A stretch of 52,475 nt of DNA from an uncultured Sandaracinaceae bacterium (lineage in GTDB: Bacteria > Myxococcota_A > Polyangia > Polyangiales > Houyiibacteriaceae): contig CAZEAA010000004.1 of NCBI GenBank assembly GCA_964510015.1, positions 1 through 52,475 on the forward strand. The letters are read 5' to 3'. A model generated the notes under the pieces. The model worked only from the letters and a program-made list of their open reading frames with translations, had not been told where the DNA came from and made no database searches. The position numbers were made by a program, and so were the translations under genes. Of the stretch, positions 33,647 to 38,320 are shown piece by piece; the stretch's first letter is position 1, and each line of letters opens with the position of its first letter.

Positions 33647-36600
33647 TCAACGCCGCTTCAAGACGCGGCGGGGCGCCTCCTGAGAAGTGGACCCGGCAGC
33701 CGCCCGCGAGAGGGCCCGCTCGGCGGCGCGTGAAAGCGCTTCGTTGGCCGTGCTGCCTCCGTCCAGGTGCTCGGCCAGCGCCGCGATGGTGGGGAAGCGG
33801 AACACGTCGGTCACGGTCAGCGGCTTACCCGTGAGCTCGCGGATCTCGCGGTGCGCCTGCACGGCCAGCAGCGAGTGCCCACCCAGGTCGAAGAAGTTGT
33901 CGCGCGCGCCCACGTCGGCGAGCCCCAGGAGGCGCATCCAGACCTCGGCGATCTGCCGCTGCGTCTCGCCCGTGGTGGCCACCTTCTCGGCGCGCGCCGC
34001 GGTGTTCAGCTCGGGCTTGGGCAGCGCCTTGCGGTCCACCTTCTTGTTGGGCGTCAGCGGGTAGCGGTCGAGCCGCACGAAGTGCGCGGGCACCATGAAC
34101 GAGGGCAGGCGCTCCTCGAGGTGCGCGCGCAGCACGGGCACGTCCAGCGGGGCCTTGCTGATCAGATACGCCACGAGGCGCTTGTCCCCCGGCGTGTCCT
34201 CGCGCGCGATGACCACCGCGTTCTTCACCGACGCGTGCGCTTCGAGGCGCGCCTCGATCTCGCCCAGCTCGATGCGGTAGCCGCGCAGCTTCACCTGGTT
34301 GTCCACGCGGCCGAGGAACACCATCTGCCCGTCGGCGCGCCACTGGACCTCGTCGCCCGTGCGGTACATGCGAGCGCCCGCGCGCGGCGAGAAGGGGTCC
34401 TGCACGAAGCGCTCGGCCGTGAGCTCCGGACGGTTCCAGTAGCCACGCGTCACGCCGTCACCCGCGATGTAGAGCTCGCCCGCCATGCCCGGGGGCACCA
34501 GCTCGAGCGCCTCGTCCAGCACGTAGAGCTGCGTGTTGACGATGGGCGTGCCGATGGTGACCGCGCTGCCCGCCGGATCCACGGTGGACGTGGACGACCA
34601 GATGGTGGTCTCGGTGGGCCCGTACATGTTGGTGATGGTGGCGCGCGTGGCGGCCCCGATGTCCTTCACCAGCGCGAGCGGCAGCGCCTCACCGCCGATC
34701 ATCCACTGCTCGAGCCCCGCGAGCGCGCGGCGCGACTCGTCGTTGGTCACCAGCATGCGCGCCATGGAGGGCGTGCACTGCAGGTGGGTCACGCGCTCGC
34801 GCACCAGCTGCGCCGCGATGGAGAAGTCGTCCGCCGCCACCGCGCGCACTTCATCGCTCGACGCGCGGCGCAGCTCGTTCAGCAACGGCAGGTGCGCCAT
34901 GACCGTGGCCGAGTCGATGCCGAAGTCGATCAAGCAGCCGAGCTCGTCCACGCCCACGTTGCGGCAGGCCTCCACGATGGCGCGCGCCGACTGCGGCGTG
35001 CCGAACAGCGCGCTGGTCTCGTAGTAGCGCTCGAAGGCGTGGTCGAGCAGCGCCTCGGTGTCCTCGGGCGAGAGGTTCTCGAAGTTGTCCGCGAACGACT
35101 TGGTGCTGTCGGCCGCGGCCTTGAACGCCGGGAAGGCCCACGCGTGCGTCTGGATGAGCGCGATGGAGCTGCGCAGGTAGTCCTTCATGGGACCGCGCAC
35201 GGTCTCCTTCACGGCCGCGTCGTCGTTGCCGATGAAGGTGTGCAGCATGAGCACCACGAAGCCCTCGCCCGCGTGCCCGGCCTTCTTCCACGCCTCGCGG
35301 TAGACGCGGATCTTGCTGGCCACGTCGTCGAGGCTCTGCCCGAGCAAGTGCGTGAGCACGCCGCCACCCATGCGCCCGGCCATCTCGAACGTCTCGGGGT
35401 TGCCGGCCGCCGTGATCAGGAAGGGCAGCTCCGGCTGGATGGGGCGCGGCAGCGAGCGCACGGCCACCGGACCGAGCGGACCCTCGAAGGTCACGTGCTC
35501 GCCGCGCCACAGGCGCTGCACGGTCTCGATGTCGTCCACCATCTGGTCCTTCTGACGGCCGAAGGACTGCGGCCGCAGGAGGAAGTCGTTGGGCTGCCAG
35601 CCCGCCGCGAAGCTGATGTCCACGCGGCCGTTCGAGAGGTTGTCCACCAGGCCCCACTCCTCGGCGATGCGCACGGGGTGGTGGAGCGGGCTGACGCAGC
35701 TGCCCGCGCGGATGCGGACGTTCTTGGTGATGGCCGCGATGGCTGCGCTGGCCACCGCCGGGTTCGGGTACAGGCCACCGAACGCGTGGAAGTGACGCTC
35801 GGGGGTCCACACCGCGGAGAAGCCGTTGGCGTCGGCGAAGCGCGCGCCGTCCATGAGCAGCTTGTACTTGTCCGCGGCGTTCTCGCCCTCGTCCGAGGCG
35901 AAGTAGAACAAGCTGAAGTCGAGCTTGCGGTCGCTGCTGCGAGTCACCTCGCCGCCGCTCACGAGGCCGCGGTCTTCGTCGCCGGCCAGCACCACGCGGA
36001 AGCCGCGGGCGAGCGTGTAGAACAGCTCGAGCACGCTGATGTCGAAGCTCAGGCTGGTGACGGCCAACCACGTGCTGCCGGGCGCGTGCGGGATGCGCTC
36101 GTCCATGCCCACGAAGAAGTTGCTCACCTGCTGGTGCTCCACCATCACGCCCTTGGGCAGGCCGGTGGAGCCGCTGGTGTAGATGAGATACGCGAGGTGG
36201 CGGGAGTAGAAGTCCCCCTGCGGCAGGCGCGCATCGGACTGACCCGCGAGTTCGGGACAGTCGTCGAGGCACAGCGCCTGCGCGGGAGTGGCCGGCAGCT
36301 GCGAAAGCAGCGCCCGCTGCGTGAGCACCCGCGCGGCCCCGCTGTCTTGCAGCATGAAGGCCACGCGGTCGGGCGGATAGGTCGGGTCGAGCGGCAGGTA
36401 GGCGCCGCCCGCTTTCAAGATGCCGAGTGCCCCGATGACCAGGTCCACGGAGCGGTCGGTGTAGAGGCCCACCGGCTCGCCTTTGCCCACACCCAGCGAG
36501 CGCAGGTGCGCGGCCAGGCGGTTGCTGCGCCGGTCGAGCTCGGCGTACGTGAGGCGCGTGTCGCGGTGCACCAGCGCGATGGCGTCCGGGGTGCGGTCGG

Positions 36601-38320
36601 CCTGCAGCTCGAACAGCTGATGCACACCGAGGTCGCGCGGGTACTCGCTGTCCCGCGGGTTCCACTCGGTGAGCAGCTGCTGGCGCTCCCGCTCGGTGAT
36701 GAGCGGCAGCTTGCCCACGGTCTGCTGCGGGTCGCACAGGGCCGCTTGCAGCAGCACCTCCAGCTGACCGGCGAAGCGCTCGGCCTGAGCGGCGGGGAGC
36801 CGCTCGGGATGGAACACCAGGCACGCCTCGCGGCCGTCCGTCAGCACGGCGAGCGCCGCGCCCTCGGGCAGCACGTAGGCGCTGGCCGTCGCCAGCGACG
36901 GCAGCGTGTCGAACACCACGGGCCACTCGGGCAGCGTGAGACCGGGCTGACGCACCACCAGATCGCGCGGGAACGTGCCGCGCCGCTGCGCCGTGGCGAG
37001 GGCCTCGGCCGCGCGCTCCACCAAGACGGCGAAGGGCAGCGCACGGGCCACCGGGAGCGTGAGCGGCACGCGCGTGGCGTACACGGCCTCCGCCCCGTGC
37101 ACGCGGTCGAGCCCGGCGTGGCGGTGACCCAGCTCCACGTCCGGCGCGCCACCGAGGCGCACCAACAGCGCGCTCAGGCCAGCCAGCAGCGGCGAGGTGC
37201 CTGCCGCGGCTCCCGAGAGCGCGATGCGCCCGAGCGGGCCGCCTGCGACGCTGACCCCGAGCGCAGCCCCCGGCATGGGCGTGGGCGCGCTGGCGAGCAG
37301 CCGCTTCACCCAGAACGCCTCGTGCGGCGCCAGCCACTGGTCCAGCTCGGTGAGCTGCGCGCGCAGCGCAGCGCTGGTCTGCAGGCTCTCACCGGGCGCG
37401 AGGCCCCGCGCGCGGAGCGCCTCCACCGACTGCGGACCGCCCGCGATGCAGCGCACCAGGCCGAAGCGCAGCGTGCCGTTGGCCGTGGCCACCTCGAGCC
37501 CCTGCTCGTCCAGCGCGACGAGGGTGCCCGGTGCCGCGCTCGTGCTCTGTGCCGCGTGCGTCACGTCTCCCAGCAGCAGCGCGCCACTGGCGAGCACCAC
37601 CTTGGAAGTGCCGACCGGGTTCGGGTAGCGCCCGTGGTCGAGCGCGCGCACCAGCGCCGACACGTCTTCGGCAGAGCGCGTGAAGTCCAGCGTGCAGCCG
37701 CCCTCAGGGCGCTGGTCCTTCGCGAAATAGCTGCGCTGCGAGAGGTCCTGCGGAACGCGCACCAGCTCCCAGCGGCCGAGCATGTCGGCCACGTCGCCGA
37801 ACGCGTCGATGGCCACCTCGTAGCAGCGCGTGTTCAGCGTGAGGCAGGTCTCGTTGGGCGCCAGCTCGAAGGTGCGCTGGGCGAGGATGTCGCCCTCGTC
37901 GATGCCGCCCTCGATGAGGTGGAACGTGATGCCGTGCGTGGGCTCGCGGTGGAGCAGCGCCCACACCGGCGCGTTCAGGCCGGCGTAGCGCGGCAGCGGA
38001 CCGTCGTGGAAGTTGATGGCCCCACGCGCCGAGAGCGCGAGCACGTCCGCCGGGATGATGGACAGGTTGGCGATGCTGAAGAACCACTCGAACGGCTCGG
38101 GCCCGATGCGCTCCGCCAGCGTGCTGCGCGGACCCGAGGCGATGACGCGCAGCCCGCGTCCCTCGGCCCAGCTCGCGATCTCGGGGTTCTCGGTGATGAC
38201 GCCAGTAACCGCGTTGCCGCGCTCGAGCAGCCGCTCGGCGCACTGCACCAGGAGGGTGCCGTTGCCCATGAGCACACTGCGGAACGGGTTCTGCGCTTGC
38301 ATCGTCATCGTCGCCTTCAC
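33647..38320 (-). CDS. NRPS-like protein: formyltransferase domain, truncated condensation-like remnant, adenylation domain interrupted by a luciferase-like monooxygenase, and T domain (1557 aa)
   Basis: Domain evidence:
- Fmt motifs: [30 protein letters not shown].
- C-domain mid and C-lobe pattern without HHxxxDG (aa about 330-545), ending in the C-A linker [15 protein letters not shown].
- A motifs: [23 protein letters not shown], then [39 protein letters not shown].
- LLM insert: [19 protein letters not shown]..
- T domain: [12 protein letters not shown].
GTG at 38320 abuts AGGAGGA, so the ATG at 38308 is a likely alternative start. Confidence 0.9.
34871..35929 (-). other. Luciferase-like monooxygenase (MOx) insertion between adenylation core motifs A4 and A5
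   Basis: Residues about 798-1150 of the NRPS-like protein. Contains [50 protein letters not shown] and [13 protein letters not shown]. Flanked upstream by FDISVLELF (A4) and downstream by NMYGPTE (A5). Confidence 0.7.

Follow-up and report, generated by a model that had tools for sequence, protein, structure and literature searches.

A formyltransferase-fused, monooxygenase-split glycine module and its partner polyketide synthase in a myxobacterial glycan-export locus

Two types of glycine-handling module have been described that resemble parts of the gene studied here. In the first, a formyltransferase (F) domain, an adenylation (A) domain for glycine (Gly) and a peptidyl carrier protein (PCP, also called the thiolation or T domain) form a loader that delivers an N-formylglycyl thioester to a polyketide synthase (PKS). 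Loaders of this F-A(Gly)-PCP type are known from the conglobatin (CongA), oxazolomycin (OzmO), phthoxazolin (PtxE) and rhizopodin pathways, and formylation of a carrier-bound amino acid by an F domain has been shown for LgrA (PMC4504003, PMC5764310). The second type is represented by MtaG and MelG, in which a condensation (C) domain is followed by an A domain split by a monooxygenase (MOX or MOx), a T domain and a thioesterase (TE), giving the order C-A-MOX-A-T-TE. Alpha-hydroxylation of the N-acyl-Gly is proposed to be followed by dealkylation, which would yield a terminal amide and an alpha-keto acid, the latter released by the TE (PMC11411415). We analysed a stretch of 52,475 nucleotides (nt; positions 1 to 52,475, about 71% G+C; hereafter the window) from an uncultured Sandaracinaceae bacterium. 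It carries a gene, here called the target, for a nonribosomal peptide synthetase (NRPS) that, relative to characterised enzymes, joins these two known devices: an F-A(Gly)-T loader and an MtaG-type A(MOx). We propose with moderate confidence that the target is the loading module of a two-protein NRPS-PKS line, in which glycine would be formylated, hydroxylated and passed to the PKS.

A conserved PKS/NRPS cluster of roseobacters was reportedly noted by Martens et al. in 2007. The same four-gene set, consisting of a PKS, a glycosyltransferase, an NRPS and a phosphopantetheinyl transferase (PPTase), has been described without identification of its product (PMC4337385, PMC5014874, PMC10584327). 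The cluster was counted in 28 of 57 roseobacter genomes, with a 'product not yet characterised' (PMC4337385, PMC5014874), and it was still without a MIBiG match in 2023 (PMC10584327). A deorphanised product of the roseobacter cluster was not found in the searchable literature. The target is a myxobacterial, differently wired member of this known orphan cluster family, and its architecture will be no surprise to users of antiSMASH on roseobacters.

Domain organization of the synthetase

The target open reading frame (ORF) occupies positions 33647..38320 of the minus strand and has 1557 codons. Its G+C content is 0.95 at third codon positions (GC3) and 0.49 at second positions (GC2). The GC3 value identifies it as a real coding frame, and an overlapping plus-strand ORF of 1870 amino acids (aa) was rejected as its shadow. 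The domain order of the protein is F, the C-terminal lobe of a C domain, a Gly-type A domain split by an MOx, and T. A Pfam scan with matches taken at E<=0.1 placed Formyl_trans_N at residues 87-170, Formyl_trans_C at 210-295, Bac_luciferase at 813-1126, AMP-binding_C at 1354-1427 and PP-binding at 1456-1519. AMP-binding was matched in two pieces, the first of which (570-783) covers profile positions 1 to 241 out of 384. Condensation, thioesterase and reductase (R) families had zero Pfam matches at this threshold. An earlier first-pass annotation, made from the letters without database searches, had expected the four kinds of domain that the library scan matched (F, AMP-binding, Bac_luciferase and PP-binding) together with a truncated C domain, for which there is no Pfam Condensation match. 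It had also placed a single T domain with a GGHS motif at the end of the protein, with neither TE nor R. This is what the protein contains, as only 38 residues separate the PP-binding match from the stop. More than 120 full-length homologues of about 1540 aa, found by protein search at 48-88% identity, have the same Pfam string, and the GGHS of the T domain is nearly invariant across the family.

The F domain is a complete formyltransferase. A profile of 13 F sequences covered both subdomains, and so the full length, of E. coli Fmt and of the formyltransferase domain of ArnA, with E values of about 1e-29 (1.2e-29 for ArnA). The same profile matched sugar N-formyltransferases at 1e-22 to 1e-16 and the LgrA F domain at 6e-13, in the last case over the N-subdomain only. 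A complete C-terminal subdomain like that of Fmt and ArnA distinguishes the target F domain from those of LgrA and the F-A(Gly)-PCP loaders. An AlphaFold2 model of residues 1-570 was made from 68 sequences (predicted local distance difference test, pLDDT, 95.5; predicted template modelling score, pTM, 0.91), and Foldseek matched it to ArnA and Fmt with a template modelling (TM) score of 0.86, the best match being ArnA. The Asn-His-Asp triad that had been read as retained in residues of about 14-300 is indeed kept: N103, H105 and D141 are invariant in 68 homologues. The NFHDGPLP stretch is invariant as well, and an 11-residue loop is invariant or nearly so, with at least 90% conservation. Such conservation indicates that the F domain is under selection as an enzyme.

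The C domain of NRPSs is a two-lobed fold of about 450 aa with the HHxxxDG motif in its N-lobe. In the target, the segment between F and A resembles only the other lobe. A profile built from 18 sequences of residues 296-570 was compared with the whole set of PDB sequences. It matched only NRPS C domains, and there only the C-terminal half together with the C-A linker. The matches include McyB (residues 260-478, E 6e-24), Txo2 (233-472, E 5e-23), EntF (195-456, E 6e-12), SrfA-C (250-462, E 2e-9) and the LgrA C domain (1020-1223, E about 1e-7), as well as the C domains of Txo1 and PvdL. The aligned remnant of about 230 residues falls on C-domain positions of about 180-470. The longest matches begin at about 176-195, which, going by the positions of C-domain motifs, we take to lie just past the HHxxxDG helix. 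When HHxxxD[GA] was sought anywhere in the 121 family members, it was found in 0/121. Both results agree with the earlier description of a truncated C domain that lacks the N-lobe and HHxxxDG. A local HRHAGLD string was considered as a His motif and rejected; it sits between C4 and C5 and is not conserved. Among 120 listed homologues, five have a precomputed weak Pfam Condensation match (marked weak for P0051).

The C remnant is the least conserved part of the protein, with a column identity of about 0.45. It is confidently folded in the AlphaFold2 model, in which an alternating strand-helix pattern over residues 317-529 is compatible with a single C-domain lobe. All 50 matches listed by Foldseek for the 1-570 model correspond to the F domain, and no independent C-lobe match is among them. 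The C-lobe assignment is therefore based on the profile search and on the secondary structure of the model. In the arrangement we favour, the C-lobe between F and A would be a non-catalytic structural relic. The module looks like an MtaG-type C-A(MOx)-T module in origin, in which the N-lobe of the C domain has in effect been replaced by a formyltransferase. A natural swap of this kind is of interest to NRPS evolution and engineering.

The A domain is recognizable on both sides of the insert. The A4 sequence FDIS is at residues 759-762, within a 10-residue motif at 758-767, and the A5 sequence NMYGPTE is at 1231-1237. After removal of the insert, the two halves form one continuous alignment with each of the two LgrA A domains, from end to end. 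The specificity residues were rederived from motif landmarks in GrsA-PheA numbering and read D-I-L-Q-M-G-M-I-W-K, which reproduces the hand-derived Gly-type code of the first-pass annotation. Positions 235, 236 and 239 (D, I, L) come from the N-terminal part of the domain, and positions 278 to 517 (Q, M, G, M, I, W, K) from the C-terminal part. The LgrA A2 domain, which activates Gly, was rejected as a code reference, as its pocket residues deviate from the canonical Gly code. The target code occurs in 87 of 121 sequences, followed by DILQFGMIWK (13/121) and DILQLGMIWK (9/121), and the canonical DILQLGLIWK is present in a single one of the 121. Variation within the family is confined to positions 299, 322 and 330. 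According to a 2025 survey of A-domain signatures, these are precisely the positions at which Gly codes differ, and the four MOX-type Gly domains found there all have DILQLGMIWK (PMC12283262). The target code is identical to DILQLGMIWK at 9 of 10 positions (L299M). This agreement in both code variation and MOX-type code supports an A(MOx) of the MtaG/MelG type, and glycine as the substrate is a strong prediction from the sequence.

In MtaG, the MOX domain is inserted at the A4-A5 position. The insert of the target matches NCBIfam TIGR04020, the MupA/Atu3671 group of natural-product luciferase-like monooxygenases, at residues 802-1151 with 485.6 bits against a cut-off of 244. Since this match is flanked by FDIS at 759 and NMYGPTE at 1231, the insert lies between A4 and A5. 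An interruption at this point by a luciferase-like monooxygenase had been proposed earlier, as had the correspondence to MtaG and MelG; both proposals are in line with the match and with the split-A organization of C-A-MOX-A-T-TE (PMC11411415). The target thus resembles MtaG and MelG in having a Gly A domain split by a luciferase-like MOx and followed by T, with DILQLGMIWK in those proteins and DILQMGMIWK in the target, and both are myxobacterial. When TIGR04020 domains occur in assembly lines, the usual interpretation is alpha-hydroxylation of a tethered thioester (PMC8739492). Among solved structures, the insert is closest to the monooxygenase domain of PuwE (PDB 6KET, E 3e-112), which is also of the TIGR04020 type. 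In the puwainaphycin pathway, 2-hydroxylation of the 3-amino acyl chain on its carrier is attributed to this PuwE Ox domain (PMC4219810). In contrast to the target insert, the PuwE domain is not located in an A domain; it stands between a PKS and an NRPS module and acts on a beta-amino fatty acyl chain.

Gene partnership and glycan-export setting

A partner for the target, overlooked in the first-pass annotation, is encoded 3.7 to about 4 kb away, where a PKS and a family 2 glycosyltransferase (GT2) occupy positions 41940-49600. The PKS consists of ketosynthase (KS), acyltransferase (AT), ketoreductase (KR), dehydratase (DH), carrier and TE domains. Its active sites are intact: the Cys/His/His residues of the KS lie in TACS, HGTGT and NIGH, the AT has GHSVG and the TE has GFSGG. 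The carrier of this PKS (47550-47650, plus strand) has an NRPS-type 12-residue GGHS motif rather than the PKS-type GxDS, and the motif is identical to that of the target T domain. A six-frame scan of the window for carrier motifs found only these two. The N-termini of the PKSs just ahead of the KS are acidic (median -3 over 14 residues; positions 42030-42080, plus strand, in the window). The C-terminal tail of the NRPS is net basic in 119/119 homologues scored and ends in RRVL[KR]RR in about 33 of 121. The basic tail and the acidic PKS N-terminus may form a docking pair, which is a weak hint given that the terminal motif is confined to that subset.

The partnership was followed by tblastn through 83 loci; counts of the GT2 refer to 84 sequences, the 83 loci and the window. 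Algicella and Hydrogenophaga have a PKS gene (product about 2150 aa) followed by those for the GT2, the NRPS and an Sfp-type PPTase. These four genes are found on one strand in about 70 of the 83 loci, where the PKS shares about 50% identity at 98% coverage, and the GT2 has an orthologue in 71/84 sequences. By NCBIfam, the GT2 has weak similarity to MftF and rhamnosyltransferases. An analogy to the ArnA/ArnC pair, formed by F and the GT2, was rejected, as no ArnC-type family is among the NCBIfam matches of the GT2. In three loci (numbered with the prefix L, as below), the PKS directly follows the target and the other two genes are missing. In L085, a locus of 24.7 kb, none of the GT2, the PPTase and glycan genes is nearby, and in L056 (Planctomycetaceae) and L070 (Anaerolineaceae) tblastn finds neither GT2 nor PPTase. 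The minimal unit is thus the NRPS together with the PKS.

The window resembles the roseobacter cluster in its NRPS, which is an orthologue of the roseobacter protein of about 1540 aa with the same domain order, and in the orthologous KS-AT-KR-DH-carrier-TE PKS followed by a GT2. It differs in two ways. Its genes are divided over two divergent operons, one with the NRPS between Wza and Wzc and one with the PKS and GT2 behind a WcaJ-type transferase, and tblastn finds no Sfp-type PPTase in its 52 kb. This split, divergent arrangement is shared with the Sandaracinaceae locus L086 and also with L025 and L073.

The F-C*-A(MOx)-T architecture (C* being the truncated C domain) had been called unusual. 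It is uncharacterised, yet it is common in genomes. Homologues of the target were found in Sandaracinaceae (including Sandaracinus amylolyticus), Algicella, Hydrogenophaga, Acidovorax and Paracoccaceae, and the target is 48-56% identical over its full length to proteins of cultured Sandaracinus, Algicella and Hydrogenophaga. In loci of Rhodobacterales, identity is 44-55% over 96-99% of the target length, and of those loci that could contain the target gene in full, most likewise cover 96-99% of it. A profile of the F domain, applied to one genome per species, retrieved relatives in at least 588 species, and their lineages include Rhodobacterales, Hydrogenophaga, Myxococcota, Planctomycetota and Chloroflexota. 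The best 80 of these are mostly Rhodobacterales (Roseovarius, Ruegeria, Salipiger, Shimia and Leisingera among them), and the rest of the best 80 are Hydrogenophaga, Myxococcota, one member of the Planctomycetaceae and one of the Anaerolineaceae. Although the retrieval was made through the F domain alone, F is fused to the NRPS module in every relative seen.

Genes for polysaccharide export and assembly surround the target in several lineages. The gene order Wza-target is found in L001, L004, L005, L006, L009, L025, L073 and L086, and the order Wza-target-Wzc in the window and in L001, L004, L005, L006, L009 and L086. The ORFs of 87 sequences (the 83 loci, L084-L086 and the window) were clustered for recurrent neighbours. 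A MOP (Wzx-like) flippase is encoded directly upstream of the PKS in 21 loci, and in 16 roseobacter loci, L077 (707-2179) and 15 others, its place is taken by a protein of about 490 aa with about ten hydrophobic, predicted transmembrane segments and no family assignment, which may be a Wzy-like polymerase or a divergent flippase. Roseobacter clusters are flanked by Wzx- and Wzz-like genes. A Wzz-like protein directly follows the PPTase in 14 loci, and other loci have genes for a family 1 glycosyltransferase (GT1), GT2, WecG or an epimerase. At least one further glycan gene is present in 49 of 65 full-size loci.

A further recurrent neighbour is orfX, which encodes a protein of about 330 aa. 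The family has 12 members in 11 loci of Myxococcota, Hydrogenophaga and Rhodobacterales, and it is present twice in the window, at 41029-42027 and at 22076-23275 (both plus strand). The other members are in L003 (23432-24604), L008 (16585-17574), L010 (15321-16307), L011, L019, L043, L061, L074, L084 (17927-18997) and L086 (6201-7364). In Hydrogenophaga, roseobacters and Amaricoccus, a member lies a short distance downstream of the cluster, and in several loci it comes directly after the PPTase. Its members have invariant GHSL and DxxH motifs and a signal peptide or lipobox, and four of the 12 have a weak DUF4886 match. There is no PDB, Pfam or NCBIfam match above threshold. The motifs suggest an SGNH-like protein, possibly an esterase or acyltransferase that works in the periplasm and is linked to the product.

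Proposed chemistry and its alternatives

From the observed domain identities and gene partnership, we infer each of the chemical steps of the proposed loading module. The A domain would activate glycine and load it on T, as the specificity code suggests. The F domain would formylate the amine of Gly-S-T with N10-formyl-tetrahydrofolate as the donor, by analogy to LgrA, CongA, OzmO and PtxE. The MOx, which depends on flavin mononucleotide (FMN), would hydroxylate the alpha-carbon of the N-formylglycyl thioester, as the comparison with MtaG/MelG and PuwE suggests. Domain dissection makes these first three steps directly testable. The resulting N-formyl-alpha-hydroxyglycyl thioester would be handed to the KS of the partner PKS. 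Alternatively, the carbinolamide may collapse first, in which case a glyoxylyl-S-T would be passed on and formamide released. The PKS would then carry out at least one malonyl extension, a reduction, a dehydration and release by the TE. The co-conserved GT2 probably glycosylates the product, perhaps at the retained carbinolamide.

The position of the target at the start of the line is suggested by the N-terminal F domain, the lack of a catalytic C domain and the presence of a TE only on the partner PKS. The same features give the direction from NRPS to PKS: F is a mark of initiation, none of the 121 family members has HHxxxDG, and the sole TE and an intact KS are on the PKS. Like CongA, OzmO and PtxE, the target combines an N-terminal F, a Gly-type A and a carrier in one protein, and a PKS acceptor is encoded nearby. 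It differs from them in the C-lobe between F and A and in the MOx insert, the only two elements without a counterpart in these loaders. A cyclodehydratase of the CongE/OzmP/PtxD type is absent from the Pfam and NCBIfam matches of the window ORFs and of the recurrent neighbours, among which no search with the CongE sequence was made. An oxazole formed by the cyclodehydratase route is therefore unlikely. The comparison with MtaG points the same way as to position. The target has neither a catalytic C domain nor a TE, and it has F in place of the N-lobe of C, so it most likely starts a line, whereas MtaG ends one. Formylation would provide the N-acyl group, a task that falls to the C domain in MtaG, and this would explain how F could replace the catalytic half of a C domain.

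Several observations weigh against the proposed loading module or against parts of it. Six PPTases from related loci, used as tblastn queries, found no counterpart in the 52-kb window; the Sandaracinaceae locus L004 and the loci L025 and L073 do have one. The roseobacter order PKS-GT2-NRPS-PPTase is not colinear with a flow from NRPS to PKS. Sandaracinus amylolyticus has the order Wza-target-Wzc and no PKS within 10 kb. The F domain is closer to Fmt and ArnA (1e-29, full length) than to the F domain of LgrA (6e-13), and T-bound Gly as the formyl acceptor is therefore only predicted. The sequence would fit an N-formyl-alpha-hydroxyglycyl unit that is retained, one that is glycosylated and one that has collapsed to glyoxylyl. 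Finally, the link of the product to a polysaccharide comes from synteny only.

Because the target is flanked by genes for glycan assembly and export in several lineages, the end product most likely forms part of, or decorates, a glycoconjugate that is secreted or held at the cell surface, such as a surface polysaccharide or glycolipid, rather than being a free antibiotic. For the roseobacter cluster, the picture can be drawn further as a tentative suggestion. It may build a short polyketide acid primed with N-formyl-alpha-hydroxyglycine or glyoxylyl, which would be attached by glycosylation or esterification to a polysaccharide exported by Wzx/Wzy and Wza/Wzc, with the orfX-type protein acting in the periplasm. 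If true, this would be an assembly-line-made substituent on a bacterial exopolysaccharide and a new thiotemplate logic, in which a formyltransferase stands in for half of a C domain and furnishes the N-acyl group that an MtaG-type monooxygenase needs. The glycan-export setting itself shifts the search for the product, missing since 2007, from culture extracts to cell-surface glycans.

A variant of this chemistry, which we regard as rather unlikely, makes the formyl group traceless. The carbinolamide would dealkylate with release of formamide, and glyoxylyl-S-T would be the true PKS starter or would be hydrolysed. Dealkylation after hydroxylation of N-acyl-Gly has been proposed for MtaG and MelG (PMC11411415), and the A(MOx)-T part of the target is of the same type. 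However, the target has no TE in cis to clear glyoxylate, and the route appears costly, since an A domain could load glyoxylate directly. From general chemistry, N-acyl-alpha-hydroxyglycines also persist fairly well when no lyase is present. The strictly conserved F active site is consistent with both variants.

The first-pass annotation had considered that F could 'equally' be a sugar N-formyltransferase. In this alternative, F would be an enzyme like ArnA, WbkC or QdtF that acts on an amino sugar activated by a nucleoside diphosphate (NDP), and the A(MOx)-T part would serve some other function. The target F shares the formyltransferase fold and the catalytic triad with these enzymes. Its profile matches ArnA as well as it matches Fmt and also reaches sugar N-formyltransferases, the best Foldseek match is ArnA, and the gene sits in a glycan locus. 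Unlike ArnA, WbkC, QdtF and WlaRD, however, F is part of an NRPS protein, and it is fused to C*-A(MOx)-T in all relatives seen, with at least 588 species retrieved through F alone. Amino-sugar genes were not found in the window: Pfam and NCBIfam scans of its ORFs gave no aminotransferase, no NDP-sugar 4,6-dehydratase and no decarboxylase, and the GT2 lacks an ArnC-type match. The PKS partner is kept in L085, where no glycan genes are nearby, and F-A(Gly)-T loaders are already an established type. The sugar role is thus the weaker reading of F, and we consider it improbable. A terminating module like MtaG, in which the PKS chain would be joined to the Gly amine, hydroxylated by the MOx and released as a polyketide primary amide, is very improbable: the insert position and Gly code of the A(MOx)-T part do resemble those of MtaG and MelG, and the roseobacter PKS gene precedes that of the NRPS, but the target has only the C-lobe of a C domain, without HHxxxDG, the PKS has its own TE with an intact GxSxG, a conserved F would have no role, and the NRPS precedes the PKS in the loci of Planctomycetota and Chloroflexota and in L085.

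Features of the window and further observations

The coordinates of the target domains and of the genes linked to them are collected in Table 1.

Table 1. Target domains and associated genes in the window (nucleotide positions; residue numbers are those of the target protein)
Feature	Position	Strand	Evidence
Wzz/Wzc-like chain-length determinant, 11 nt downstream of target	31582..33636	-	Pfam Wzz, TIGR03007
Short basic C-terminal tail of target, ending RRVLKRR, without TE or R	33650..33763	-	translation
T/PCP domain, residues 1456-1519, Ser within 12-residue GGHS motif	33764..33955	-	Pfam PP-binding
A domain, C-terminal part (A5-A10), residues ~1160-1435	34016..34843	-	TIGR01733 positions 199-409, AMP-binding_C, NMYGPTE at 1231
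Luciferase-like MOx insert, residues 802-1151	34868..35917	-	TIGR04020, Pfam Bac_luciferase
A domain, N-terminal part (A1-A4), residues ~560-790	35951..36643	-	Pfam AMP-binding, FDIS
C-domain remnant (C-terminal lobe only) and C-A linker, residues ~310-545	36686..37393	-	profile search
F domain, N- and C-terminal subdomains, residues ~14-300	37421..38281	-	Pfam, profile, AlphaFold2/Foldseek
Wza-type outer-membrane polysaccharide export protein, directly upstream of target, same operon	38336..39379	-	Pfam Poly_export and SLBB; NCBIfam EpsE/pepcterm_export
WcaJ-type undecaprenyl-phosphate glucose phosphotransferase, heading the divergent operon with orfX, PKS and GT2	39548..41026	+	TIGR03023 532 bits (cut-off 411), Pfam Bac_transf and CoA_binding_3
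orfX, exported SGNH/GDSL-like protein	41029..42027	+	motifs, signal peptide/lipobox
Type I PKS, KS-AT-KR-DH-carrier-TE	42030..48656	+	Pfam; ~50% identity, 98% coverage to orthologues
GT2 glycosyltransferase after PKS	48557..49600	+	Pfam Glycos_transf_2

Other genes of the window were noted in passing. The end of the locus is marked by a gene for a BrnT-type ribonuclease toxin (49848-50147, plus strand; PF04365, E 2e-22) directly after the operon of the PKS and GT2. A DltA-like amino-acid adenylation protein that stands alone (18492-20204, plus strand; TIGR01733, 343 bits) is encoded beside a polysaccharide deacetylase (20207-20950, plus strand) at the margin of the glycan genes. A protein of about 950 aa (15609-18470, minus strand) has nine MopE-type putative copper-binding repeats (PF11617, E 1e-65).

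Upstream of the glycan locus, an oxidative and tailoring group spans positions 6618-15580. It includes a 2-oxoglutarate-Fe(II) oxygenase (6618-7655, minus strand), an AurF-like N-oxygenase (8675-9613, plus strand), an AraC regulator (11517-13022, minus strand), a pectinacetylesterase-like protein (12626-14650, minus strand), a short-chain dehydrogenase/reductase (13986-15038, plus strand) and a CMD-family protein (14999-15580, plus strand). The pectinacetylesterase-like and dehydrogenase/reductase genes overlap by about 660 nt, so at least one of the two calls must be wrong.

In Hydrogenophaga sp. RWCD_12 (L003, 17655-23669), the four genes are followed by another synthetase (2004 aa), accompanied by a GT1 and a methyltransferase. 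The Pfam order of this synthetase is AMP-binding (DIP2-like), PP-binding, Condensation, AMP-binding, PP-binding and Thioesterase.

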